This document shows, in pieces, positions 1 to 11,602 of a stretch of 11,602 nucleotides of DNA (the first letter of the stretch is position 1; the number at the start of each line of letters is the position of its first letter). The position numbers were made by a program, and so were the translations under genes. Source of the stretch: a virus (lineage: Duplodnaviria > Heunggongvirae > Uroviricota > Caudoviricetes). Below the pieces are notes generated by a model, which saw only the letters and a list, made by a program, of their open reading frames with translations, was not told the DNA's origin and did no database searches. The stretch covers positions 1-11,602 of the IMG/VR virus record IMGVR_UViG_2778261227_000016; one strand, given 5' to 3'.

Positions 1-516
1 ATGAAATTTAAAAAATGTCTTCTGCCTGTGGCAATGTTAGCGTCATTCACTCTGGCAGGATGCCAGTCAAATGCTGACGATCATGCTGCCGATGTTTATC
101 AAACCGATCAACTGAATACCAAACAAGAAACTAAAACCGTTAATATTATTTCCATTCTTCCCGCAAAAGTTGCCGTAGACAACTCCCAAAATAAACGGAA
201 CGCACAAGCCTTCGGCGCGCTTATTGGCGCAGTCGCTGGCGGTGTTATCGGCCACAACGTCGGGTCTGGCAGCAATTCCGGAACGACGGCAGGTGCAGTT
301 GGCGGCGGAGCTGTAGGCGCGGCAGCGGGTTCTATGGTGAATGATAAAACCTTAGTGGAAGGTGTTTCTTTAACCTATAAGGAAGGCACCAAAGTGTATA
401 CCTCTACCCAGGTGGGTAAAGAGTGCCAGTTTACGACAGGTTTAGCCGTTGTTATTACCACGACGTATAACGAAACGCGTATTCAGCCAAATACTAAATG
501 TCCTGAAAAGAGCTAA
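1..516 (+). CDS. yfgH: Host lipoprotein with glycine-zipper region (YfgH-like)
   Basis: ATG at 1; lipoprotein signal with lipobox LAGC (MKFKKCLLPVAMLASFTLAGC); Gly/Ala-rich glycine-zipper stretch GALIGAVAGGVIGHNVG...GAVGGGAVGAAAG; 171 aa matches the size I recall for E. coli YfgH, and the adjacent same-strand 179-aa gene matches YfgI. Symbol is from recollection, not a search. Confidence 0.55.
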   Translation: MKFKKCLLPVAMLASFTLAGCQSNADDHAADVYQTDQLNTKQETKTVNIISILPAKVAVDNSQNKRNAQAFGALIGAVAGGVIGHNVGSGSNSGTTAGAVGGGAVGAAAGSMVNDKTLVEGVSLTYKEGTKVYTSTQVGKECQFTTGLAVVITTTYNETRIQPNTKCPEKS

Positions 517-531
517 TAATCAGGAGGAGTC

Positions 532-1071
532 ATGAAGAAAGTTTTTCTTTGCGCCATCTTGGCCTCCTTAAGCTATCCGGCTATCGCCTCATCATTGCAG
601 GATCAACTCTCTGCTGTAGCAGAAGCTGAACAGCAAGGTAAAAATGAAGAGCAAAGGCAGCATGACGAATGGGTCGCGGAGCGCAACAGGGAAATCCAGC
701 AAGAGAAGCAACGTCGCGCAAATGCCCAGGCCGCCGCTAACAAAAGAGCGGCAACGGCAGCGGCAAATAAGAAAGCTCGTCAGGATAAACTGGACGCCGA
801 AGCCTCTGCGGACAAAAAACGCGATCAAAGTTATGAAGATGAGCTACGCAGCTTAGAGATTCAGAAACAAAAACTGGCGCTGGCAAAAGAAGAAGCCCGC
901 GTTAAGCGAGAAAACGAATTTATCGATCAGGAACTGAAGCACAAAGCTGCGCAAACCGATGTGGTGCAATCTGAAGCTGACGCCAACAGAAATATGACTG
1001 AAGGCGGTCGCGATCTGATGAAAAGCGTGGGCAAAGCAGAAGAGAACAAATCGGACAGCTGGTTTAATTAA
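532..1071 (+). CDS. yfgI: Host secreted charged/coiled-coil protein (YfgI-like)
   Basis: ATG at 532 preceded by AGGAGG (521-526); N-terminal signal peptide MKKVFLCAILASLSYPAIA; K/E/Q/A-rich low-complexity body; 179 aa, 15 bp downstream of the yfgH-like gene on the same strand, as in the E. coli yfgH-yfgI pair (recollection). Confidence 0.5.
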   Translation: MKKVFLCAILASLSYPAIASSLQDQLSAVAEAEQQGKNEEQRQHDEWVAERNREIQQEKQRRANAQAAANKRAATAAANKKARQDKLDAEASADKKRDQSYEDELRSLEIQKQKLALAKEEARVKRENEFIDQELKHKAAQTDVVQSEADANRNMTEGGRDLMKSVGKAEENKSDSWFN

Positions 1072-1110
1072 TCGATGTTAGTAACTTCAAGCCTATGATT
1101 CTTGAAGATA

Positions 1111-1145
1111 AAAAACCCTCTGTAGTAACAGAGGGTTTTGTTCAT
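1111..1145 (+). terminator. Rho-independent terminator after the yfgI-like gene
   Basis: Perfect 7-bp stem CCCTCTG (1116-1122) / CAGAGGG (1129-1135), loop TAGTAA, followed by TTTTGTTCATTC; an A-run on the 5-prime side makes it potentially bidirectional. Confidence 0.7.
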
Positions 1146-1172
1146 TCATAGTGCAGGGATTAAAATCATTCC

Positions 1173-1209
1173 CACTCAATTATTTACGGATACCATAACC
1201 AATTGAGTG
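1173..1209. repeat. 9-bp perfect inverted repeat CACTCAATT / AATTGAGTG with 19-bp spacer in the host-prophage junction
   Basis: CACTCAATT at 1173-1181 and its reverse complement AATTGAGTG at 1201-1209, between the host terminator and the spanin stop codons; candidate att-arm or recombinase-binding element. Confidence 0.3.
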
Positions 1210-1290
1210 ATAACATTTTTAAAAAGATGAATTTTTCCCGTACCGTTTTATATACCGTCACCGGAAATCAGTACCATGAAAAATGCCATG

Positions 1291-1773
1291 CTATCTGTTC
1301 ATGGTGTCGTACTGTTTTTCGCAGACTCTTCCGGCTTCGGCTGCCCGGTCAGCATACTCTGCCAGTTGTCTGTTTCTCTCGAGAGATTTGCTGAGCACGT
1401 CGGCAAGCAAAACTCCGGTGTCTGCGGCTGACGACCCAGCGCCGACAATGGCGTTATAGTGCCTGAGCTGCTCACGGATGGCAACGAGCTGTTGCTGCAA
1501 CCGGCCAGCGCGAGCGGCAGCATCAAGAGCATCATTGCGCGCCTGGTCGATCCTCTGCTGCGCTTCACGTTCATTGATCGCTTTCTCCTGTTCGTAGTGC
1601 TGACGAACTATCTCATCTTCGGTTTTGCGGTCTTCTTTCGCCTGTGCATACCCGGCATCGTACTGACGACTGCCGTGTACACTCCAGGCAACAACTCCTG
1701 ATATGGCCAGAACAGCAAGCGCCGCCATTATAATCAACTGTTTACGGTATGCTTTTACGAATGCCCAGATCAT
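1291..1773 (-). CDS. Rz-like inner-membrane spanin (i-spanin)
   Basis: 160 aa; N-terminal TM helix ([18 protein letters not shown]) then a charged coiled-coil-like periplasmic region ([50 protein letters not shown]); ATG at 1773 overlaps the endolysin stop as ATGA (1773-1770); contains an embedded lipoprotein ORF in another frame. Confidence 0.75.
1299..1574 (-). CDS. Rz1-like outer-membrane lipoprotein spanin (o-spanin), embedded in the Rz-like gene
   Basis: ATG at 1574 with AGGAGA about 8 nt upstream on the minus strand; lipobox LAGC after a hydrophobic run ([13 protein letters not shown]); Pro/Ser-rich mature region; lies wholly inside the i-spanin gene in a different frame, the classic embedded Rz/Rz1 architecture. 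Confidence 0.7.
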   Translation of the reverse strand: MNVKRSRGSTRRAMMLLMLPLALAGCSNSSLPSVSSSGTITPLSALGRQPQTPEFCLPTCSANLSRETDNWQSMLTGQPKPEESAKNSTTP

Positions 1774-2399
1774 ACAGCCAGCACCTTACTGGCAGTGACG
1801 TACCGCGAGCGCCGGTCGTCGATGCCATTCCGGCCACCATTGATAATCAGAGTTACACGTGCAATATCTCCGGGATACTTCATGCAGCCTTTGCTGGAGA
1901 AGAACCACGCCGCGCTACGAGCCGCGTATTCGTCCTGCGTCAACAGCTCAGGATTCTCCAGCAGGTCCACTTTTAGGCCGTTTCCGCAGTCACGATAGTT
2001 ATTCAAACCGGTAATCTGGATAAGCCCGCGCCCACGGTAATTCCAGCCATCGCCGGGAGCATTGTTACCCATGCGTTTGCTGTATACCAGATTTGCGATC
2101 GCGCGCTGGCGCTCAAGTGGCAATGGTGGTTCACCAGCACGGCGACCAAGTGCATTAGCCTGCACCTGAGTGAGACGCCCAGCCCGAACGAAGTTAGCCA
2201 GTCCGCTGACACTGTAGTTGAAATTCTCCTGCAACCTGGTGAAACCACCAGACTCATGCCCGACCTGAGCAATAAACATTGCCTGATCTTCTGCTTTGCT
2301 GATACCAAACTCTTTCATCGCAGAAGTTATATGCGAGAACCAGCGTGCGGCCAGCGCCTCGCTAATACCAGCAGCTCGCTGGAATTGTTTAATCTCCAT
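1770..2399 (-). CDS. Endolysin, glycoside hydrolase family 19 (chitinase-like) type
   Basis: Start placed at the internal ATG 2399-2397 ([11 protein letters not shown]...) with GAGG Shine-Dalgarno just upstream; the 77-residue upstream extension in the ORF track is rejected. Contains the GH19-like motif [10 protein letters not shown] and [12 protein letters not shown]; about 209 aa; sits between holin-like genes and the spanins. Confidence 0.8.
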
Positions 2400-2697
2400 G
2401 TTTAGACCTCGATACTTTGAAAATTTGAACGACGTTACCGCGCGTTTTAATAACCGCAGCGAGCATGACAGCGTTGATAATGACCTCAGATAAATCCACA
2501 GCCATTGGCGTGCGTAACCAGATTGCATAGACGACACGAACAGGAATACTTGCCGCAGCAACAATAAGGAAATAAGCAAGCCACCCTCCCCATCTTCGAT
2601 GTTGAGAGCCGTTACGCCGGAATGTGACAACGCGAATTGCTATGCCAGTACAAATGACTGCATTGGTGATAAGCAAAAAAAACTCATGCGTTACCAT
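2389..2697 (-). CDS. Small membrane protein in the lysis cassette (second holin or antiholin candidate)
   Basis: 102 aa; ATG at 2697 with GGGAGA upstream; two or three hydrophobic helices ([16 protein letters not shown]; [23 protein letters not shown]); its 3-prime end overlaps the endolysin start by 11 nt. Confidence 0.5.
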
Positions 2698-3088
2698 CGT
2701 CTTTTCTCCCCGGAATTAACTCGCGTGGATTATCGGAACGGTGATAGAGCCATATACCAATACGCACAGCAACAATTGCTGACACGAATGCGCCAGCTGA
2801 GAAAACAATCCCTTTTTCAAAAGAGTCCTGCGTGATGGTAGGGATCAGGCTGGCTATGCCGATAAGAATTGATGCTGCTGGTTTATAAAAAAGAAGGCCG
2901 CAGAGAAAGCTAAGCATCGACAAGAGTACACGACGACGAATAGGATACTCTACCGCAGAGGTAACAAAAATCACCGCCCCAGCCAAAGCCCCCAAAGCAA
3001 CCTCAGGAGGAACTCCTGCTATCACCGCCGCCAGAGAACTCATGCTAAGCCACTGATTTAAAGTTTCACTGGTTAGTTGAGCTGACAT
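2684..3088 (-). CDS. Holin-like multi-pass membrane protein
   Basis: ORF-track start at 3097 is GTG; I prefer the in-frame ATG at 3088-3086 (MSAQLTSE...) with GGTGGA about 7 nt upstream. About 134 aa with 3-4 hydrophobic helices and a charged C-terminal tail ([18 protein letters not shown]); first gene of the lysis cluster. Confidence 0.5.
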   Translation of the reverse strand: MSAQLTSETLNQWLSMSSLAAVIAGVPPEVALGALAGAVIFVTSAVEYPIRRRVLLSMLSFLCGLLFYKPAASILIGIASLIPTITQDSFEKGIVFSAGAFVSAIVAVRIGIWLYHRSDNPRELIPGRKDDGNA

Positions 3089-3192
3089 GTTTTCCACCGT
3101 TTACTGTGCATAAAGACCCCCATTAGTTGGTGATCACATCATACACAATAAACCATATATGGTTAAACCTGACTAAGATTGCTCTTAACGAA

Positions 3193-3209
3193 ATTACCCG
3201 AAAGGTGAT
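3193..3209. promoter_or_regulatory. Dyad motif copy a: ATTACC-cgaaa-GGTGAT (candidate operator)
   Basis: In the divergent intergenic region between the holin-like gene and the acyltransferase gene, 38 nt upstream of the acyltransferase ATG; shares both half-sites with copies at 6703, 7083 and 8122. Confidence 0.4.
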
Positions 3210-3246
3210 ATCATTGACGTATCATATGATTTTGTGAAAAAAAATT

Positions 3247-4302
3247 ATGCTAGAAGAGAAAAAAAGCCACGCCATTGATTATGTAAAGTGTATTGGTATT
3301 GTTCTTGTTATATTTGGTCATTACCCAAATACAATTATCAATATACTAAAGCCATACATGTATCACATGCCTCTATTTTTCTTCTTGGGTGGGATTCTTT
3401 TTAATACAAAAAAAGGAAGTATAAAGCACTATAAAAACTTAGCAATTAAATATCTACTATACATAATTATGTCGTATGTTTTTTTGGGATTGACTGTTAA
3501 GTTAATGCATTATTTGTTTGAAACTCAAGACAAATTAATTTACGTTAACAATCTTTATGATTCTGTGATGTTTGCACTGAAAAGCAATTTTCACAACAAT
3601 CCGTTATTTATGGTTGGATGGTTTTTATTGAGCTATATGCTCGTTCTTGTAGTTGCATATCCATTTTACAAAATAATTGAGACGTATTTAAACGAGACGA
3701 CAGCGAAAGTTTTTTCTTTTACGATTGGACTCGCTATTGGATACGTGGCGATTACATATGTATCACCAATGTACAAAGAAAGCAAGATGTTCTATTTTAA
3801 CACTCTATGTCAGGTGATGGTTGGTTTGTCATTCTTCATGATCGGCTACGCCGCCAAAAATGTGATATGGAAATTTCTAAATCCATATACTACATTTACC
3901 TTGTTTTTATCCGTTATTTTCTTTCGTCAGTCTGGATTAATCACGAATTTATATATGTCATGGAGCACTTACGCAGATGGTTTTGTCATGAGCCTAGTTG
4001 GTGCGTTAATTGGAATTTATATAATATTTTTCTTTGCCGACCTGTTTTCAAAAGCTGGCGACTATAAATTAATGCGTATGGTTGGCAGTGAAAGTAAGGC
4101 TATAATGACGTTTCATATGTTAAGTTTCACGATAGTTGACATTATTTTCTCGCTACTAGGTTTCTATACAGTTGATAAAAAGCAGATACTCAATCACTTT
4201 ACATCAGCTTATTCCCTTCCTTTGAATATATTAATCGCAATATTCCTGTCTATTTTATTAGGGAAAGCATTAAGGAAGTTATCTAAAGGCGTATACGCAT
4301 GA
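3247..4302 (+). CDS. Acyltransferase family 3-like integral membrane protein (candidate O-antigen/LPS O-acetyltransferase; AT-rich accessory gene)
   Basis: 351 aa, about 10 hydrophobic helices; N-terminal motif DYVKCIGIVLVIFGHY resembles the conserved first-helix Asp/Arg...His motif of acyltransferase-3 (Oac/OafA-type) enzymes; strongly AT-rich (17 of 60 G+C in 3301-3360); opposite strand to and directly beside the tailspike gene. No obvious Shine-Dalgarno before the ATG. Confidence 0.5.
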   Translation: MLEEKKSHAIDYVKCIGIVLVIFGHYPNTIINILKPYMYHMPLFFFLGGILFNTKKGSIKHYKNLAIKYLLYIIMSYVFLGLTVKLMHYLFETQDKLIYVNNLYDSVMFALKSNFHNNPLFMVGWFLLSYMLVLVVAYPFYKIIETYLNETTAKVFSFTIGLAIGYVAITYVSPMYKESKMFYFNTLCQVMVGLSFFMIGYAAKNVIWKFLNPYTTFTLFLSVIFFRQSGLITNLYMSWSTYADGFVMSLVGALIGIYIIFFFADLFSKAGDYKLMRMVGSESKAIMTFHMLSFTIVDIIFSLLGFYTVDKKQILNHFTSAYSLPLNILIAIFLSILLGKALRKLSKGVYA

Positions 4303-4320
4303 AGCCCCTTTTGGGGCTTC
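4301..4320. terminator. Stem-loop between the convergent acyltransferase and tailspike genes (bidirectional terminator candidate)
   Basis: Perfect 8-bp stem GAAGCCCC (4301-4308) / GGGGCTTC (4313-4320) with TTTT loop, between stop codons at 4300-4302 (+) and 4329-4331 (-); no long U-tract on either side. Confidence 0.5.
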
Positions 4321-4328
4321 TAAATGAA

Positions 4329-6599
4329 TTACGGAACTCGCGTTAGTACGTTATTATTCCAGTAACATTCACCACTCGCCAGACCGGTAGCTGAAGTAGG
4401 AAGAGTGAGTTTCATTGAGAGGTTAGTCAACTCAATCTTGTCGGTGTCATAAGACCCAAGCCGCAGTCTGTTCGAGCTTAACAATCTTGTGCTATCATTT
4501 GAAAACGAAAAAGAGGTACTATTTATCCTTACATTACCAATTGTTGTTGCAGACGCACCACTTGGAAATCCTCCATTAAAATTATCAAAAATATCATTCA
4601 GAGATCCTGATACTGAAACTCCAGAAACACCGTTCGTCACAGTTACAATTTGCTGTTGTGCATCACAAGAATCTGTTAATAAATTGCCAATAAGAGTACC
4701 TGCTGTAATTGAAATGTGGTTACCTATAATCTTGTTATCACCATGTGTTATATCAACGATATTGGTGCACGCCCCGATATGCTGGATATTGATATGGTTG
4801 CCACGTAACTCACCACTTGGTTGAGCGTTATTGGGTCCTTTAAGGTTAACATCGACACGGCATACGCCATTAAACATTATGTTGATTTTGTTGTTGTACC
4901 CTCTTCTTACTCTCAGTGGGCTGTCAATCGTGCCGTAGTTGGCAGAATTCATTGCGGTGAGCTCAACATCAATATCCGCTGAGCGATCCAGCAATACCAA
5001 CCCCTCGTCTAACTCCTTACCCGACACTGATCCCAACCCGCAGTTTAGCGCGTAGATATCTTTGAAACTACCGAACGAAATATCTGTAGCATAGCTTGGT
5101 GTCACCATTTCTCTGACGTTTCTTATCACTCGATCACAGTTCTCAGCGGAACAATTATAGTAGTGAACGTCTGTTGCAGTAGTCCATTCGCCAACACCAT
5201 TTTCACGACCAACAAATTCAAATGCTGATGAGCAACTTTCAACTTTTGCACCTTCAATTCTTATATTATCAACGCCGTATTCCCAGTTAAACGCCTTCCC
5301 GCCTGCTGAGTATTGTGATGACGAACCTCTGCGGCAGTTACGTATCACGCCACCAATCGACAAAACGTTCCTGCATTTACTACCGCTGATACCATTTTCA
5401 CCTTGCACATCAGACGTCGGATAACCAATATTCCCCCCATCTATATGTGGATTAATGAAACGTACATTTTCAACAGGATTACTATAAGTCCCCAGCACAG
5501 CAATCACTCCACCAATAGTTGATTTGGCAGTTAGCGTAATAAATGATGGCTTCAGCCATTCCATAGTCACATTACTAGGAACAACGATGTTATCAGAAAT
5601 TGGATATACCATTTCTTCAGTTATGATAACGCGAACACCAAATTTTGATGCTGCATTAACCGCCCCCTGAAGTCCATACAAAGTATCCGTATCAGATGGC
5701 GTAACACCAAAATCCTCTGGTGTTATATCGAATGCAGAGCGAACCCACTTCAGAGCACCACTACCAGCGACAACACCTCCATCATCTAAATCAGAGGTCG
5801 CCTTTGCGATAAACTCACCGCCACCCAACAAGGATCCAGAATGCCAGCCTTTCAACAAAATCCTCTGGCCTTCAAACTCCGGAAAAATAGAACGCAACTC
5901 ATTGAAACTATTACATTGCCCAATGCGCTTGAAACCATCAGGCTTTGCTAACTCTATAAGAACGTCTGAGGCTGACCCAGAAGGTGGTGTTATAACAATA
6001 ACGTTACCACTGTTATCAAAAGCTGGCATTTTATTGCGTCTGCCATCAACGTCAGGAAGTTGGTTTATTGGCTCAGGTACGCGAAGAGTTCTGCTAAAAT
6101 TTCCTGATGCGAGGCTATCCACATAATTTTTTGTTGCAGCATCCTGCGGTCTTACTGGATCACGTAAATTTCTGATGTAATTATTCATCGCATCATAATA
6201 GTTTGCAGCAAACGATGGCTTACGAAGCGCCAGTCTGAACCAATTACGAGTTTGCTGAATCAGCATAGTTAGTTTATCAAATGCATCCTCATGCACCTCA
6301 GCAAAAAACTTACCCTGGTTACGCAGATCTGTCTCCTGCGTAACCAGGAGCTCTCGAGAGATAGATATCTGATGACCGTTTGCCAATGCCTTCGACAAAA
6401 TTACATTGCCACCATTATATCCTCCAGCCCCGGTAACAGAGTAATCAGTATCCAGTTTCAACACCGTGATGTTTTCATTGAGGTCAGCAATCTGAACGGT
6501 CAAGTCTGACTTTTTGAAAATTCTGAATGTATACGGAAATGATGTCGTTACGCCGTTACCAGTGTATTCGTTGTGATCAACTTCGGTTGAGACCGTCAT
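4329..6599 (-). CDS. Tailspike / tail fiber protein with beta-helix-type receptor-binding (depolymerase-like) body
   Basis: 756 aa; ATG at 6599 with GGAGA about 8 nt upstream; N-terminus MTVSTEVDHNEYTGNGVTTSFPYTFRIFKKSDLTVQ... resembles the conserved particle-attachment N-domain of podophage tailspikes (recollection); central and C-terminal region rich in Gly/Asn/Ser/Thr/Val repeats typical of right-handed beta-helix folds; the 3-prime third is visibly more AT-rich than the 5-prime part. Confidence 0.8.
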   Translation of the reverse strand: MTVSTEVDHNEYTGNGVTTSFPYTFRIFKKSDLTVQIADLNENITVLKLDTDYSVTGAGGYNGGNVILSKALANGHQISISRELLVTQETDLRNQGKFFAEVHEDAFDKLTMLIQQTRNWFRLALRKPSFAANYYDAMNNYIRNLRDPVRPQDAATKNYVDSLASGNFSRTLRVPEPINQLPDVDGRRNKMPAFDNSGNVIVITPPSGSASDVLIELAKPDGFKRIGQCNSFNELRSIFPEFEGQRILLKGWHSGSLLGGGEFIAKATSDLDDGGVVAGSGALKWVRSAFDITPEDFGVTPSDTDTLYGLQGAVNAASKFGVRVIITEEMVYPISDNIVVPSNVTMEWLKPSFITLTAKSTIGGVIAVLGTYSNPVENVRFINPHIDGGNIGYPTSDVQGENGISGSKCRNVLSIGGVIRNCRRGSSSQYSAGGKAFNWEYGVDNIRIEGAKVESCSSAFEFVGRENGVGEWTTATDVHYYNCSAENCDRVIRNVREMVTPSYATDISFGSFKDIYALNCGLGSVSGKELDEGLVLLDRSADIDVELTAMNSANYGTIDSPLRVRRGYNNKINIMFNGVCRVDVNLKGPNNAQPSGELRGNHINIQHIGACTNIVDITHGDNKIIGNHISITAGTLIGNLLTDSCDAQQQIVTVTNGVSGVSVSGSLNDIFDNFNGGFPSGASATTIGNVRINSTSFSFSNDSTRLLSSNRLRLGSYDTDKIELTNLSMKLTLPTSATGLASGECYWNNNVLTRVP

Positions 6600-6702
6600 G
6601 TTAAATCTCCAGATAGTCGCAGCACCCGTTGCGCCGCATATCCGGTCATTCTATTACCTGAAAAACCACATATGGATAGATAACCCATAAATACGAACAG
6701 AT

Positions 6703-6719
6703 ATTACCTTTCAGGTGAT
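6703..6719. promoter_or_regulatory. Dyad motif copy b: ATTACC-tttca-GGTGAT (candidate operator)
   Basis: In the divergent region between the tailspike start (6599, minus) and the LexA-box promoter of the antirepressor locus; identical half-sites to copy a. Confidence 0.4.
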
Positions 6720-6755
6720 TCGCAAAACGTGCTGGATAGCAAGCAAATTATTTGA

Positions 6756-6775
6756 TACTGTATAAATATACAGTT
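6756..6775 (+). promoter_or_regulatory. LexA (SOS) box overlapping a promoter upstream of the antirepressor locus
   Basis: TACTGTATAAATATACAGTT matches the E. coli LexA consensus TACTGT-(AT)4-ACAGTA: CTGT 6758-6761, an 8-nt A/T-only spacer, ACAG 6770-6773. Overlaps a -35-like TTGATA (6752-6757); the first ATG with a Shine-Dalgarno (GGAGA 6783-6787) is at 6795. Confidence 0.65.
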
Positions 6776-6794
6776 ATTGCATGGAGAAGATAAG

Positions 6795-7052
6795 ATGCAG
6801 CAGTATCACTATCCACTGGAAGACGGATTTACCGAAAGGATTCACACGCCGGGAGGCGTCAGGTCACTAGTGGAGGGATCGCACTTGATGAAATTACTCC
6901 GGGATCTCGATAAGGATGGATTTAATGTCGATGGCCCACTTGCCGAACTGACTGCACTGATTAACTACGTCACCAGCTCACAGATGTCTATGCGGGATCT
7001 GCAAACACATCTCGACTATTGTGCCGAACAATTACGAAAACAAACCAGATAA
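6795..7052 (+). CDS. Small protein paralogous to the C-terminal domain of the downstream antirepressor
   Basis: ORF-track start at 6777 is TTG; I prefer ATG 6795 (MQQYHYPLEDG...) with GGAGA upstream; 85 aa. Residues HTPGGVRSLVEGSHLMKLLRDLDKDGFNVDGPLAELTALINYVTSSQMSMRDLQTHLDYC align by eye with the C-terminus of the 7365-8051 product (HSPSGVLGLTENSLLMNLLNQLQDDGHDVSGAAAELTTMFCYIVGVSKCLRDIQTHAEYI), about 40 percent identity. Confidence 0.5.
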   Translation: MQQYHYPLEDGFTERIHTPGGVRSLVEGSHLMKLLRDLDKDGFNVDGPLAELTALINYVTSSQMSMRDLQTHLDYCAEQLRKQTR

Positions 7053-7082
7053 GGTTTGCAATTACCAAATGGAGTGCTTATA

Positions 7083-7099
7083 TTTACCTTTGCGGTAAA
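7083..7099. promoter_or_regulatory. Dyad motif copy c: TTTACC-tttgc-GGTAAA (candidate operator) overlapping a promoter-like element
   Basis: Perfect palindrome arms ATTTACC / GGTAAAT; immediately downstream of -35-like TTGCAA (7055-7060) and -10-like TATATT (7079-7084), i.e. at the -10/+1 position typical of repressor operators. Confidence 0.4.
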
Positions 7100-7191
7100 T
7101 TTACATCACACTCCTCTTGTGCCATAGTAATCGGGCACTGGCAAAATCCAGTGCCGGGATTGGCGTCCCGAGTTACTACAGAGGCACATAT

Positions 7192-7211
7192 GCCGCATAA
7201 GCGGTTTTTTT
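7192..7211 (+). terminator. Weak intrinsic terminator / attenuator-like hairpin in the antirepressor leader
   Basis: Short stem GCCGC (7192-7196) / GCGG(T) (7201-7205), loop ATAA, followed by a run of seven T (7205-7211); lies in a roughly 310-nt untranslated leader that also holds an 8-bp-stem hairpin (7134-7155) and a GAAA-tetraloop hairpin (about 7251-7266). Confidence 0.3.
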
Positions 7212-7364
7212 ATGTGTAAAGCGCACCTATTCTATGGTGGGCTGTGTGGGGGCACCGAAAGGTGCGCCGGGTCCTTTGTAGCCGGTTACGCCAACCCTGC
7301 ACAGTTCACCACCAACCGATTGGCGTCGGTAGTGGTGATTAACCTAACTACAAAGGTGATCGCT

Positions 7365-8051
7365 ATGACTGCTAACGTAACCCCATCTGTTTTTCATTTT
7401 GAATCAGAAGCAACCATTCGAGCCATTGTTATTGATGGAAATCCTTGGTTTGTTGCCAAAGACGTTATTAAAGCTCTTCAACTGACAAACCCCACTATGT
7501 CAATAAAATCTCTTGATGATGATGAAAGGGCTAAATTTAACTTAGGCCGTCAAGGCGAAACCAATATTATCAACGAGTCAGGCCTCTACACACTGATCCT
7601 CCGCTGCCGCGATGCGGTGACACCAGGCACTACCCCCTACCGCTTTCGTAAATGGGTTACAGGTGAGGTTCTTCCTCAGATCCGCCGCACCGGAAGTTAC
7701 ATTAAAAACTCGCTCCCGCAGGAAGAACGCATAAAGATGGTTGCCGACCAGGTAGCCAGCGCCACAGCATCAGCAGTGATGCAGGCAATGAAGGTAGAGA
7801 ACAAAACCTACAGCGCCCCACTGAAGCCCGGCTACCGCAGCCTGATTCATTCGCCGTCTGGTGTTCTCGGCCTGACGGAGAACTCACTGCTGATGAATCT
7901 GCTGAACCAGTTACAGGACGACGGGCACGACGTATCGGGCGCGGCGGCGGAGCTGACCACCATGTTCTGCTACATCGTCGGTGTGAGCAAATGCCTGCGT
8001 GATATCCAGACACACGCGGAGTACATCAACGACAAAGCAGGGTTCTTCTGA
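7365..8051 (+). CDS. Phage antirepressor with N-terminal Bro-N/AntA domain
   Basis: Start placed at ATG 7365 (MTANVTPSVF...) with AAGGTG upstream; the Cys/Gly-rich upstream extension in the ORF track (from 7212, directly after a T-run) is rejected. Bro-N signature IRAIVIDGNPWFVAKDVIKAL...ESGLYTLILRCRDAVTPGTTPYRFRKWVTGEVLPQI; 228 aa. Confidence 0.8.
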   Translation: MTANVTPSVFHFESEATIRAIVIDGNPWFVAKDVIKALQLTNPTMSIKSLDDDERAKFNLGRQGETNIINESGLYTLILRCRDAVTPGTTPYRFRKWVTGEVLPQIRRTGSYIKNSLPQEERIKMVADQVASATASAVMQAMKVENKTYSAPLKPGYRSLIHSPSGVLGLTENSLLMNLLNQLQDDGHDVSGAAAELTTMFCYIVGVSKCLRDIQTHAEYINDKAGFF

Positions 8052-8121
8052 CGGGCGGCGGCACAGGGATGTGCCTTTAAATAATTCTGTACAGATTGCA
8101 GACTGGGGGTGAATAGCGTAC

Positions 8122-8138
8122 TATTACCTTAAAGGTAA
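8122..8138. promoter_or_regulatory. Dyad motif copy d: ATTACC-ttaaa-GGTAAA (candidate operator) upstream of the two-gene module
   Basis: About 45 nt upstream of the 8181 ATG; overlaps a weak promoter-like element (-35-like TTGCAG 8096-8101, -10-like TACTAT 8119-8124). Confidence 0.4.
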
Positions 8139-8180
8139 ACCTGTTTTTATTTTATACCTGTAACTTACCGGAGATTAAAG

Positions 8181-8507
8181 ATGACAAAACTTGGATTCGT
8201 GATGAGAGGTCCGGTAAGAAGCGGAACTCATGCAAAGCGTAGCAAGAGTCGTATTTTTACTGGTAAGGTTGTAGCACGTAAATCAGCTATTGGCTCGTTC
8301 AATAGTGAAAATGCGGCATTGCGCCATATTTTTATCAGCACAAAGCCAAGAGCATCCGCTGATGTGCATACAATGACTATTCCTATCACAAAGAATATAA
8401 AGCGGATAAAAAAGCTCTCATCTGCAGAATCAAAAGAGATATCTTTCCGCCAGCTTAACTCATTAGAAACGCATATGAAGGAAGAGGAATTCGATGTTTT
8501 TGAGTGA
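8181..8507 (+). CDS. Small basic protein with acidic C-terminal tail; putative antitoxin/partner of the downstream gene
   Basis: 108 aa; ATG 8181 with GGAG (8170-8173); Lys/Arg-rich N-terminal half (KRSKSRIFTGKVVARKS), acidic C-terminus HMKEEEFDVFE; its stop overlaps the next ORF start by 14 nt (translational coupling); AT-rich. Confidence 0.45.
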   Translation: MTKLGFVMRGPVRSGTHAKRSKSRIFTGKVVARKSAIGSFNSENAALRHIFISTKPRASADVHTMTIPITKNIKRIKKLSSAESKEISFRQLNSLETHMKEEEFDVFE

Positions 8508-9006
8508 GTATAGCGGGAAGGTTATACCTACTGGTGAGTTTAAAACTGATGACTTTCTGATTTCGCTAAAAGATGCTTTTAAACAACACTGGCGTCATGG
8601 TCATCATCCTGATCTGGGAAAAGATACTCTTTTTGAAAGACCAGACGAAGTATTAGGTTTCCATCTCAGAAAGGTTCATGTCAATATTGGTGAATATGCA
8701 TCATATTCATACTCATGTACTGAACAGTGTTGGGATGAGTGGTCATATGGATTGATTGATGAACAAGGAAATTACAGGCCAAAACCAACCAGTAACGCAT
8801 ATCTCATATATGCAGTCAATGAAATAAGAGATGCAGCCTTACTAGCTTATTGGGACCCGCCCGCACACACCAAAGCTAACGCAAAAGTTTGGATGGATTC
8901 CGTATTGAATTTCACAAAATTATTTCATGAACGAACGAATACAGCTCCACTTAGTAGAAATGTTTATCCGTGGGATTATTCGTACAAATCCAAAAAGCCT
9001 GCATAG
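8494..9006 (+). CDS. Putative toxin, YafO-like (type II toxin family) by motif resemblance; function unverified
   Basis: 170 aa; ATG 8494 with GAGGAA upstream; motifs GFHLRKVHVNI, AYLIYAV and LLAYWDPPAHTKANAKVWMDSVLNFTKLF resemble the HIHL / LVY / LLxxILxPxxHxxA pattern I recall for YafO-family ribosome-dependent mRNA interferases. No HMM search was possible. AT-rich (20 of 60 G+C in 8521-8580). Confidence 0.4.
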   Translation: MFLSEYSGKVIPTGEFKTDDFLISLKDAFKQHWRHGHHPDLGKDTLFERPDEVLGFHLRKVHVNIGEYASYSYSCTEQCWDEWSYGLIDEQGNYRPKPTSNAYLIYAVNEIRDAALLAYWDPPAHTKANAKVWMDSVLNFTKLFHERTNTAPLSRNVYPWDYSYKSKKPA

Positions 9007-9087
9007 TAGTTTTTTATGGACGAAACAAAAGTCAGTGCTACACTCATTGACGCCACATTGAGGTTGATTATAGATGGAAATTTCACA

Positions 9088-9249
9088 ATGAAAAAAGCAT
9101 TTGCTGCACTGTTCGTTTTGTTGTCTCTGGTAGCTTCAACTCAGGCCTTTGCCGGTCGTTGTCAGCACGACAGCGATACTGCCGCTGACGGCTCCCGCTG
9201 CGGTGGGCGTTCTGCGGATTCCCGCCCGGGTGGCGGTGGCATTCGTTAA
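9088..9249 (+). CDS. Small secreted peptide (signal peptide plus about 31-aa Cys/Gly-rich mature peptide)
   Basis: Start placed at ATG 9088 (MKKAFAALFVLLSLVASTQAFA-GRCQHDSDTAADGSRCGGRSADSRPGGGGIR); typical Sec signal peptide with AxA cleavage site; two Cys in the mature part; the ORF-track start at 9016 lacks a Shine-Dalgarno and would put 24 residues before the signal peptide. Confidence 0.4.
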   Translation: MKKAFAALFVLLSLVASTQAFAGRCQHDSDTAADGSRCGGRSADSRPGGGGIR

Positions 9250-9272
9250 AAACAAGGCCGAGAAAGCGGCCT
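9246..9272 (-). terminator. Rho-independent terminator ending the minus-strand virion/membrane-protein unit (possibly bidirectional)
   Basis: 6-bp GC-rich stem AGGCCG (9255-9260) / CGGCCT (9267-9272), loop AGAAAG; on the minus strand the hairpin is followed by TGTTTTTAA (complement of 9246-9254); lies between the + peptide stop (9247-9249) and the minus-strand 98-aa gene stop (9281-9283). Confidence 0.55.
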
Positions 9273-9280
9273 GTGACATG

Positions 9281-9577
9281 TCACGTTCCTTTTCTGAATG
9301 ATAGCCGTTCGAAAAATGATGACATTCCACCGCAGACAATAGCAAAGATGATCCCACCAAAGAAGAGAAGGCCAGCCTGCCACCACTCCCACCGCCATAC
9401 ATCCACAGCGCCAATCATACCAACAATCGCTCCAACAAACGGAATATAACTCACGACAAAAGCAACGGGAGCTGCAATTACCCAGTGCAACCCCCACCAT
9501 GATTCAAGCCCAGCCATAATTGCTGCCAACTGAAAAAGACCAACGACGATATAAACAATGAATCCTATAGCTTGCAT
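9281..9577 (-). CDS. Small three-helix membrane protein of unknown function
   Basis: 98 aa; ATG 9577 with AGGTGA about 5 nt upstream; hydrophobic helices (IGFIVYIVVGLFQLAAIMAGL; VIAAPVAFVVSYIPFVGAIVGMIGAV; AGLLFFGGIIFAIVCGGM), Trp-rich loop WRWEWWQ; the overlapping ORF-track entries 9136-9414 and 9246-9500 are rejected. Confidence 0.55.
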   Translation of the reverse strand: MQAIGFIVYIVVGLFQLAAIMAGLESWWGLHWVIAAPVAFVVSYIPFVGAIVGMIGAVDVWRWEWWQAGLLFFGGIIFAIVCGGMSSFFERLSFRKGT

Positions 9578-9589
9578 GTAGTCACCTAT

Positions 9590-9763
9590 TTACCCATTAA
9601 AAATCAGAGGCCTCCCCTCAATAAGGCTTGCAACAAGAACTACTCCCTGCACAACAAAGATGAACCAGCAAATAGCTTGAGTCTGAGGGTTAAGAAAATA
9701 TTTGTAGCGGTCAATAAATAACAATCCACCAGAAATTATCACACTCAAAATAATTAAAAACAC
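9590..9763 (-). CDS. Unlisted small hydrophobic ORF (57 aa, GTG start) between the large virion gene and the 98-aa membrane gene
   Basis: Hand translation of the minus strand: (GTG)FLIILSVIISGGLLFIDRYKYFLNPQTQAICWFIFVVQGVVLVASLIEGRPLIFNG, stop TAA at 9592-9590; AAGGAAG precedes the GTG and overlaps the large gene's stop; two predicted TM helices; fills a 195-bp gap and ends 13 nt before the next gene's ATG. Absent from the ORF track, presumably below its length cutoff. Confidence 0.35.
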   Translation of the reverse strand: MFLIILSVIISGGLLFIDRYKYFLNPQTQAICWFIFVVQGVVLVASLIEGRPLIFNG

Positions 9764-9772
9764 AACACTTCC

Positions 9773-11602
9773 TTATTGCGGAGTGACATCCTGAGGTCGC
9801 CACCAGTATGTCTGGTTAAACTCTTTCTTCGAACGTTGCTCCATTTTACGCAAATATCCTGGTGAAAAATACTCCTGCATCTGGTTAAAGATCATGTGAT
9901 CGAGAGCCGCCTTCAAGTACCAGAGATTCGCACCAGGCATCAAACCTTTCCCCAGCTTCACCAGATCACCACCAGTCTGCTCACTCTTCCCTTCCACAGC
10001 ATTTAACGGTATGCCCTGAGCAATCTTCACTACGTCATCAACCAGACCAGCTACCGGGCCAAGCATCGACGCCAGCGCGCCGCTTCCGTACCTAGTGTGA
10101 TCTGACAATAAAAAGTCACCATAAAGGCCAAGACCACCACCTTTCAGTAGAGCACCAAGCCAGAATTTTGCGGCATCTTCTCCTGTCATCTCTCGAGGAT
10201 TACGACCAGACGCAAGGTCGTTAAGTTGTTGCGACAAAGCGCCAAGAATGGTCGTACTGGCAATAAACGTCGCAATATATGCCGCACGCCCACCAGCAGA
10301 CGGCATACCCATAGCGCGTGACCAGTGACGCATAACAACCGAGATAGGGAACGATTTAAACAGGAAAACACTTCTCGTTAATTCACCTTTCCATGTTCCA
10401 CGCTGAAGACCAGACCCTACGAACATCTGTTCACGTGCGCCCGGTGTAATAACAGCCATATCAACTTCTTCAGTTACGGCACCGAGCAGTTTACGCATTG
10501 CCTCAAATTTCACACGTTCAGGCTCACCAAGATGTTTAACTGCTGAATCAGGGATACGCATAATGCTTTCCGGTGTCAGCATCGTATTATTACCGTTCCC
10601 CCAGTCCTCCTGTTGCGCCAGCTTCCATACGCTCCAGTCTGTGTCAGTAATCCCTTTGCTTTTCAGGATACGAAAATCAGAGTCATCGAGGCTACGAAGG
10701 TCTGGTGTCCGTGACACTACTTCTCCTAGGCTTCCCATCATAGTTACGCCATAGGCGCGCTTGTGCGCATCTGACCATGCTGTAAGCCCACTGGCACGCA
10801 TTACCGCCGTTGCCGCCCAACGAGACACAGACGGCCCCATATTATCCATCGCCCAGCGGTTAACGCTGCCAAGTAGAGATTCCATCGCCAGACCAGCTCG
10901 GCGCGCCCGCGCAAGCTCAGTACGGTTCGTTGGGTCCATAGCTTCAAGCTGGTTGCGGAATAACTGGTTCATTGGAAGGTTGGTAACCTTCGCAGACAGA
11001 TACATGGTTCCAAGATCAGAGAACGATGACAGCAACGCGGATCCGAGTCTGCTGGCAACCAGCCAGTTGCGGATATTGTCAGACCATCGCGCGATGTGCG
11101 GATTCGCTACAGGCTGTGTCTTTCCGGAAATAAAGTTGTACAGGTTCTCTGTTTTGTTCGCCAGCCGCTCGACGCTACCGGTTTTACTCGGGTTAGCTGT
11201 TGCCGTTTCAGCCTTCACCTGATCAAGAAGGGAACGGAAAACATGATCGGGGTTTGGGCCATATGTTTCCACCAGAGCAATATCTTTACTGATCCCTTCC
11301 AAGTGACCGACCATGATTTCCCATAGAGAGCGATCGCCATAAAGTTGCTGATATTGCAGATAGGAATCTGCATCTTTGAAATGTATCTGTCGTGATGCAT
11401 TACCACGGTTAGAACGTGCGCCGGAAATTCGCATTCCGGTATCAGTAAGCTTATTCAGCCCACCAGTAGCGATCGTGTTATAAGCCTCTCCAAGAAATGC
11501 AGACAACTCAGCATCGTTCATCAGTTGTGAACCGCCCCGGGAATCCTGGAGACTAAACTTCCTGAGAAAGAGGTAAACAGGATGACTAAAAATACTCGTT
11601 TT
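9773..11602 (-). CDS. Large phage virion/ejection-type structural protein, partial (N-terminus beyond window end)
   Basis: The ORF-track entry starts at ATG 11521, but the frame stays open upstream to 11602 (hand translation ...KTSIFSHPVYLFLRKFSLQDSRGGSQL-MNDAELSAF...), so the gene probably starts outside the window; at least 609 codons; no enzymatic motif recognised; Gly-rich C-terminal segment (LKGGGLGLYGDFLLSDHTRYGSGALASMLGPVAGLVDD); same strand as and directly upstream of two small membrane-protein genes. Confidence 0.6.
   Translation of the reverse strand, partial: KTSIFSHPVYLFLRKFSLQDSRGGSQLMNDAELSAFLGEAYNTIATGGLNKLTDTGMRISGARSNRGNASRQIHFKDADSYLQYQQLYGDRSLWEIMVGHLEGISKDIALVETYGPNPDHVFRSLLDQVKAETATANPSKTGSVERLANKTENLYNFISGKTQPVANPHIARWSDNIRNWLVASRLGSALLSSFSDLGTMYLSAKVTNLPMNQLFRNQLEAMDPTNRTELARARRAGLAMESLLGSVNRWAMDNMGPSVSRWAATAVMRASGLTAWSDAHKRAYGVTMMGSLGEVVSRTPDLRSLDDSDFRILKSKGITDTDWSVWKLAQQEDWGNGNNTMLTPESIMRIPDSAVKHLGEPERVKFEAMRKLLGAVTEEVDMAVITPGAREQMFVGSGLQRGTWKGELTRSVFLFKSFPISVVMRHWSRAMGMPSAGGRAAYIATFIASTTILGALSQQLNDLASGRNPREMTGEDAAKFWLGALLKGGGLGLYGDFLLSDHTRYGSGALASMLGPVAGLVDDVVKIAQGIPLNAVEGKSEQTGGDLVKLGKGLMPGANLWYLKAALDHMIFNQMQEYFSPGYLRKMEQRSKKEFNQTYWWRPQDVTPQ

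Follow-up and report, generated by a model that had tools for sequence, protein, structure and literature searches.

An exchangeable pair of small membrane-protein genes behind the ejection-protein gene of an epsilon15-like prophage

What do two small open reading frames (ORFs) encode that lie directly behind the large virion gene of a prophage, and is the smaller of them, which annotation passes over, a gene at all? We studied this question in a window of 11,602 nucleotides (nt), positions 1 to 11,602 of the IMG/VR virus record IMGVR_UViG_2778261227_000016, which contains an ORF of 57 amino acids (aa; here orf57) and one of 98 aa (orf98) at this position. An original prediction, made from the letters of the window, had read both as small membrane proteins of a P22-like phage, and had offered the superinfection-exclusion protein SieA, holins and injection-associated proteins as models for their function. 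We found that the two ORFs form the last, exchangeable unit of a late operon encoding internal-virion (DNA-ejection) proteins in an epsilon15-like E. coli prophage, and we consider it highly probable that both are real membrane-protein genes, carried together in a cassette.

Phage type and organisation of the operon end

By similarity, the source phage is a Uetakevirus (epsilon15/phiV10 group), a temperate podophage, and not the P22-like phage that had been proposed. The window region is 97-98 % identical to Uetakevirus phages, the nearest being the Escherichia phages HEMP4 and phiv142-3, together with many E. coli prophages. The forward direction of the phage is the minus strand of the window, on which all coordinates of the cassette are given. 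Read in this direction, the C-terminal portion of a virion protein of 824 aa is followed by the two small ORFs, by a terminator and by a convergent block on the plus strand, with the following features.

9773 to 11528, minus strand: large virion gene, 3' part (about 585 codons of 824 aa; phrog_684 match, 824-aa homologues)
9768 to 9775, minus strand: TAA of the large gene, fused with the orf57 Shine-Dalgarno sequence TAAGGAAG (direct sequence reading)
9590 to 9763, minus strand: orf57, 57 aa, GTG start, predicted two-helix membrane hairpin with the conserved loop DRYKYFL (family, substitution ratios, hydropathy, AlphaFold2)
9578 to 9589, minus strand: 12-nt spacer with the orf98 Shine-Dalgarno sequence AGGTGA at 9587-9582 (direct reading)
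9281 to 9577, minus strand: orf98, 98 aa, ATG at 9577, three hydrophobic segments (phrog_3075 member)
9247 to 9272, minus strand: intrinsic terminator closing the late operon (hairpin and T-tract)
9289 to 9769, minus strand: exchangeable cassette of orf57 and orf98, about 480 bp (homology breakpoints)

The large gene is a homologue of epsilon15 gp17, and its product matches phrog_684, a 'virion structural protein' family, with E=5e-272 over profile positions 245-831. Hardies et al. placed epsilon15 gp17 and P22 gp16 in the ejection family of T7 gp16, named IVP-D for 'internal virion protein D' (PMC4819975), and by homology the large gene belongs to this same epsilon15 gp17 / T7 gp16 family of ejection proteins.

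The TAA stop of this IVP-D-family gene (9775-9773) is part of the motif TAAGGAAG (9775-9768), a strong Shine-Dalgarno sequence with 6 nt between its AAGGA and the GTG at 9763, so that orf57 starts 9 nt past the stop. All coordinates given in the original prediction, the overlap of its Shine-Dalgarno sequence with the large-gene stop and the position of both ORFs directly downstream of the large gene (gaps of 9 and 12 nt) are thereby confirmed, as is a terminator after orf98. The latter consists of the hairpin AGGCCG-CTTTCT-CGGCCT at 9272-9255, with a 6-bp GC-rich stem and a 6-nt loop, followed by TTGTTTTT; it abuts the stop codon of the convergent plus-strand gene, and the 46-nt stretch 9285-9240, which holds the terminator and a second small hairpin, has a folding energy of -12.4 kcal/mol. 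A scan that detects near-consensus sigma70 sites only found no sigma70-like promoter within 9763-11528 of the minus strand.

On its 5' side, the large gene is interrupted near codon 242 of 824 by an insertion sequence (IS), of which the window holds one end.

11529 to 11602, plus strand: left end of an IS3-family element (IS1203/IS629-like), with its junction to the large gene at 11529

Because this element breaks the large gene, the prophage copy in the window is probably defective, and orf57 and orf98 may here be severed from their late promoter. Their frames are intact despite the insertion, and the window region shares 99.8 % identity with strain S1-CAM-04-C, in which the annotated large gene has its full length. 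IS1203/IS629-like elements occur in thousands of copies among E. coli genomes.

orf57 is a conserved coding sequence

Judged by its pattern of substitution, orf57 is a genuine protein-coding gene under purifying selection. Across 10 pairwise comparisons spanning five genera, the ratio of non-synonymous to synonymous divergence (dN/dS) is 0.16-0.32 in the frame of orf57, against about 0.5-4.6 in the two other frames, and the differences between genera are concentrated at third codon positions. The family comprises proteins of 53-58 aa in 22 clusters, down to 50 % identity, with relatives recorded in E. coli, Citrobacter, Klebsiella, Salmonella and Enterobacter as well as in viral metagenomes. 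Length, position and Shine-Dalgarno sequence are kept across six enterobacterial genera: the start lies 9-11 nt past the stop of the 824-aa gene in every locus inspected, the start codon alternates between GTG, TTG and ATG at one fixed site, and the Shine-Dalgarno sequence takes the forms TAAGGAAG, TAAGGGGG, TAAGGAGG and TAGGAGAG in relatives, with TAAGGAGG-like motifs kept at this site in five genera and spacers that vary in both sequence and length. The ORF is intact in 38 of the 38 complete IMG/VR loci (57 aa in 37 and 60 aa in one).

Could orf57 be no gene at all, and instead either have arisen by chance in an AT-rich spacer or extend the C-terminus of the large gene by read-through? It is left out by the Prokaryotic Genome Annotation Pipeline (PGAP), starts with GTG and has a GC content of 37-39 %, against about 50 % in the large gene (0.45-0.53 in orf98); moreover, the large gene, orf57 and orf98 all share one frame in the window, with a single TAA codon separating each from the next. 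Against this stand a dN/dS well below 1 in the orf57 frame only, the conservation of length, Shine-Dalgarno sequence and start site across genera, and the rarity of such an ORF by chance, with only 42 of 5000 shuffles (0.8 %) producing one of 57 aa or more that fills the 195-nt gap. The large gene and orf57 no longer share a frame in Klebsiella oxytoca or in one metagenomic relative, both of which have a spacer differing by 1-2 nt; read-through of the stop codon, or a fusion to the large gene, is therefore not the explanation and can be ruled out. The low GC content may alternatively be due to a coding sequence rich in Phe, Ile and Leu. Altogether, we regard it as very improbable that orf57 is not a gene. 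A non-coding RNA was also considered, and is ruled out by the lack of any Rfam match within 9240-9800 together with the coding-type substitution pattern.

The predicted protein has two hydrophobic segments by hydropathy, and its AlphaFold2 model is a helical hairpin (helices 2-20 and 26-49; predicted local distance difference test score, pLDDT, of 76), which bears out the two-helix structure first proposed for it. Its loop and C-terminal residues are conserved.

Between genera, the synonymous divergence (dS) of orf57 is 0.55-1.4, in a small sample of about 37 synonymous sites. Over the same genome pairs it is higher both in the large gene next to orf57 (1.75-2.5, but 0.64 in one close pair) and in orf98 (about 1.8). 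Possible reasons are a more recent exchange of the orf57 segment, codon usage strongly biased towards AT, or a constraint on the nucleic acid that overlaps the coding one.

An annotation gap at orf57

The expectation that annotation would skip orf57 proved right: PGAP leaves a 195-nt gap at its position in the three RefSeq E. coli records that were opened, and the record of Klebsiella phage BUCT711 likewise leaves it unannotated. In the phiv142-3 record, the 98-aa gene is called in a 118-aa form (6315-6671) that overruns the end of orf57. In relatives with an extra T in the spacer between orf57 and orf98, gene callers lengthen the 98-aa gene to 114-122 aa, in a frame other than that of orf57. 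This upstream extension is probably a mis-annotation that helps to hide orf57. Entries for 57-aa 'hypothetical proteins' do exist in NCBI, from E. coli, Citrobacter, Klebsiella, Salmonella and Enterobacter. A gene under selection is thus unannotated in three RefSeq E. coli records and in both phage records inspected, and the cassette is a concrete example of how small membrane proteins escape annotation; should its genes prove to be accessory and without measurable effect, the result would be an annotation correction only.

orf98 encodes a predicted membrane protein of the family PHROG 3075

By its conservation, orf98 is likewise a genuine gene, and encodes a predicted integral membrane protein. 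It aligns end to end with PHROG 3075 (phrog_3075, E=8.4e-53, residues 1-98 on profile positions 1-98 of 98), a family without functional annotation; its dN/dS is 0.02-0.23 in the pairs where dS could be estimated, and all 38 complete IMG/VR loci have it intact. Homologues down to about 46-50 % identity were identified in Klebsiella, Dickeya, Kosakonia, Yersinia and Salmonella. In the family alignment, Q16, P46, a ladder of small residues (G49xxxG53xxG56A) in a Gly-rich helix and the motif WxWWQAxLLFFGG are invariant. The family profile is represented by 693 cluster representatives among 1.84 billion proteins, and in the wider family some members are fused to DUF805, RDD or MORN domains, which provided no functional lead. 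The domain itself was not found in Pfam or NCBIfam.

Hydropathy gives three hydrophobic segments, matching the three membrane segments originally assigned to orf98, and the AlphaFold2 model contains helices at residues 2-28, 32-42, 46-59 and 65-97 (pLDDT 88). A fold search with this model against the Protein Data Bank (PDB) returned no match with E<1, the insignificant top ones being K+-channel pore domains. The predicted topologies tentatively suggest that orf57 might fold as a hairpin whose basic loop, DRYK, faces the cytoplasm, and that orf98 might be oriented N-out/C-in.

As an alternative, orf57 and orf98 might be proteins of lysis timing (holin-, antiholin- or pinholin-like) that modulate membrane integrity late in infection. 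In favour of such a role are two small proteins with two and three transmembrane (TM) segments and an inferred late expression, the charged C-terminal tail and glycine-zipper-like motifs of orf98, and a weak match to Phage_holin_5_2 (E=0.012). This match reaches 16.3 bits against a cut-off of 29.2 bits, however, and appears in only 4 of 25 family members, and there is no significant fold match in the PDB. In addition, a full lysis cassette (membrane protein, holin, endolysin and Rz/Rz1) lies elsewhere, at 1291-3097 of the window and about 6 kb away, placed after the tail-fibre gene as it also is in epsilon15, phiV10 and phiv142-3. The holin-like identity suggested in the original prediction thus finds little footing, and we judge a role in lysis timing to be distinctly unlikely. 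Membership of a holin family was tried, with no such family scoring above its cut-off, and is ruled out by profile matches that are both sub-threshold and inconsistent, and by the wrong location.

The two genes form an exchangeable cassette

We surveyed the slot behind the large gene in 80 IMG/VR viral contigs in which the C-terminus of the large gene is at least 95 % identical to that of the window. The slot contents begin 9-12 nt past the large-gene stop, and fall into four classes.

38 complete loci and 2 cut by contig ends: orf57, then orf98
31 loci: phiV10 p21-type protein, 46 aa, unrelated
8 loci: unrelated 41-aa hydrophobic ORF (one TM segment by eye), then a 126-aa lipoprotein
1 locus: the 126-aa lipoprotein alone, directly in the slot

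Across these 80 loci, homology to the window breaks sharply at about 9770 and restarts at about 9288, just before the shared terminator, which is kept in loci with other cassettes; orf57 and orf98 therefore make up a discrete unit of about 480 bp. The match to phiV10 itself ends just past the large-gene stop. Within the unit, the two genes are 12 nt apart in 33 loci; four loci have a 13-nt spacer and one a 4-nt spacer. The sole indel among close relatives, of 1 nt, falls in this spacer, outside both ORFs. Replacement between near-identical phages, with sharp boundaries and at least four alternative contents, is the pattern expected of moron-type cargo. The cassette is carried by 212 of 5426 complete E. 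coli genomes (about 4 %).

Phages of the same genus with other cassettes have similarly small proteins in this slot, with a terminator after them. These are epsilon15 gp18 (64 aa), which overlaps the gp17 stop and has two hydrophobic stretches, and phiV10 p21 (46 aa), for which the phiV10 record gives two predicted TM helices; they belong to phrog_29212 and phrog_7892. Each is a single gene and not a pair, and no similarity was detected among orf57, orf98, phiV10 p21 and epsilon15 gp18.

orf57 and orf98 assort independently. Where orf57 occurs without orf98, a lipoprotein gene comes next in Salmonella, in Citrobacter and in one metagenomic phage, and K. oxytoca has a gene for a 92-aa TM protein there. 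Conversely, orf98 homologues of 51-59 % identity directly follow IVP-D genes in Kosakonia and Salmonella, the IVP-D gene of Kosakonia being only 25 % identical to the 824-aa family; in Yersinia, an intervening reverse gene separates the orf98 homologues from the IVP-D gene, and one member of the orf98 family stands among RecT/SSB genes, in a replication region. In one metagenomic relative (L100, 4257-4579, plus strand), the gene after orf57 is called as 79 aa, and an upstream ATG encodes the lipobox LTGC. By its sequence, this gene probably encodes a lipoprotein of about 107 aa, has an AT-rich region of its own upstream, and would be a further cargo of the slot.

The slot after the last ejection-protein gene is thus a recombination hot spot for unrelated small hydrophobic ORFs and lipoproteins, and supplies a defined candidate set for new superinfection-exclusion or ejection-related factors in podophages.

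The constancy of the slot suggests the main alternative explanation, in which a small hydrophobic ORF at the IVP-D stop is a needed helper of the ejection proteins that tolerates changes of sequence. Such a helper could be a membrane-side chaperone, an immunity factor against membrane damage by IVP-D in the producing cell, or a minor component of the virion or ejectosome. In nearly every Uetakevirus lineage examined, a small hydrophobic ORF (orf57, p21, the 41-aa ORF or gp18) stands 9-12 nt past the IVP-D stop, where tight coupling to IVP-D would bring about co-expression, and the conserved loop and C-terminal residues of orf57 suggest a specific contact. On the other side, the four types of small ORF have no detectable mutual similarity, the swaps between large genes of at least 95 % identity argue against a co-evolving partner, a lipoprotein sits directly in the slot at one complete locus, and the orf98 family is also found away from any IVP gene. 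We consider a helper of this kind unlikely, if worth keeping in view. A stricter form, in which the codons after the IVP-D gene of epsilon15-like podophages always encode a coupled small membrane protein, as an obligate 'self-immunity' or handling factor of low specificity, appears improbable to us. Such obligate factors may shield the inner membrane of the producer from IVP-D or pass IVP-D to the procapsid and, if real, would represent a previously unrecognised step in ejection-protein assembly.

A possible accessory role at the inner membrane

The explanation that we put first, as plausible and still short of probable, is that orf57 and orf98 are accessory late-operon proteins of the inner membrane with an exclusion-like role. 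Both would be transcribed with, and translationally coupled to, the large IVP-D gene, and because of this co-transcription and coupling they would be made late in lytic growth, for insertion into the inner membrane. There, they would be dispensable envelope proteins, a moron-like cargo, rather than fixed structural partners. This accessory character is suggested by the swapping of the unit between phages with large genes of at least 95 % identity, by the independent assortment of its two genes and by the lipoproteins found in the same slot, and also by the occurrence of the orf98 family both next to very divergent IVP-D genes and in a replication region. The low GC content of orf57 relative to the large gene would be in keeping with such cargo, but may equally come from its amino-acid make-up. 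The proteins might act at the inner membrane against the delivery of incoming phage DNA, or might otherwise protect the infected or lysogenic cell. An exclusion-type function as such, for which we argue by analogy, is possible and leans towards the doubtful.

The precedent comes from P22, in which an inner-membrane protein encoded beside the ejection-protein genes blocks the ejection conduit (PMC10883804). This protein, SieA, has 162-164 aa, three TM segments and the cytoplasmic motif FxRYPxEAxxFNK, and acts on the gp20/gp16 conduit (PMC10883804). The neighbourhoods of the two phages are parallel, running from ejection proteins to small membrane proteins, to the ant region and to the tailspike, with SieA, an inner-membrane protein of three predicted TM segments, encoded beside the last ejection gene (gene 16, the IVP-D gene), between it and the ant/immI region and tailspike gene. 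The relationship to SieA raised in the original prediction nevertheless fails on sequence and on gene arrangement. In BLASTP against P22 SieA, orf98 gave no alignment (E<=100) and orf57 only a trivial match of 8 residues (E=32), and a motif search found FxRYPxEAxxFNK in neither protein; homology to SieA was ruled out by these two negative results. P22 sieA is annotated on the other strand from gene 16, with a promoter of its own, whereas orf57 and orf98 are co-directional with the large gene and share its ribosome-binding context. The proteins also differ in size, at about 160-200 aa in the SieA family against 57 and 98 aa here, and SieA is expressed from the prophage.

Small inner-membrane exclusion proteins are known from other phages, such as T4 Imm and HK97 gp15, and lom and bor are morons of the lambda type. 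Classical morons carry their own promoter, and small envelope cargo occurs in or next to structural operons and varies between close relatives. A terminator follows orf57 and orf98, and the scan for near-consensus sigma70 sites detected no promoter of their own. They are uncharacterised small membrane cargo, encoded by the phage at the end of an operon: in the literature on epsilon15 gp18, on exclusion in Uetakevirus and on small membrane exclusion proteins, we found no characterisation of either.

Several observations weigh against an accessory, exclusion-like role. We found no homology and no experimental link to an exclusion protein, and searches of PADLOC, Pfam and NCBIfam gave nothing significant. 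No promoter was found that would express orf57 and orf98 from a repressed prophage, whereas P22 sieA has one, and in the window itself late-operon expression is doubtful, the large gene being broken by the IS element. The GC content of orf98 is normal. Finally, every lineage keeps a small hydrophobic ORF or a lipoprotein tightly joined to the IVP-D stop, and this universal presence could reflect a required role of low specificity in ejection-protein handling or in lysis.

Neighbouring genes in the convergent block

The late operon faces a convergent plus-strand block that encodes a small secreted protein, a YafO-like protein, a 108-aa ORF and a Bro-N/Ant antirepressor. The following features were identified in it.

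9088 to 9249, plus strand: 53-aa protein with an N-terminal signal-peptide-like segment (longer ORF 9016-9249; phrog_14503/3117)
8494 to 9006, plus strand: 170-aa protein, named a YafO-family type II toxin by PGAP in relatives, overlapping the 108-aa ORF
8181 to 8507, plus strand: 108-aa ORF (phrog_5933), overlapping the 170-aa gene
7230 to 7316, plus strand: C4 antisense RNA (Rfam, 79.5 bits, above the gathering score)
7135 to 7211, plus strand: isrK Hfq-binding RNA (Rfam, 74 bits, above the gathering score)

The 53-aa ORF at 9088-9249 is annotated as a 'transmembrane anchored protein' in relatives, and converges on the same terminator as orf98. It is this ORF, and not orf57 or orf98, that matches the place of P22 sieA by strand and position, and it is kept behind several different cassettes.

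The match of the 170-aa protein to Pfam YafO_toxin stays below threshold, at E=9.5e-4 and 19.7 bits (cut-off 25 bits). Together with the overlapping ORF at 8181-8507, the gene at 8494-9006 may form a toxin-antitoxin pair within the ant operon.

Beyond the plus-strand block lie the tail fibre and the lysis genes, and then host DNA (yfgH/yfgI) at the left end of the window. Plus-strand ORFs at 1-516 and 532-1071 come before the phage lysis ORFs, and in matching E. coli chromosomes yfgH/yfgI are among the annotated genes under the match to window positions 1-1100. The window thus probably spans one prophage-host junction.

The isrK and C4 matches lie directly upstream of, or overlap the start of, the Bro-N/Ant ORF at 7212-8051, and the three together look like an antirepressor control module of the P1/P7 type.

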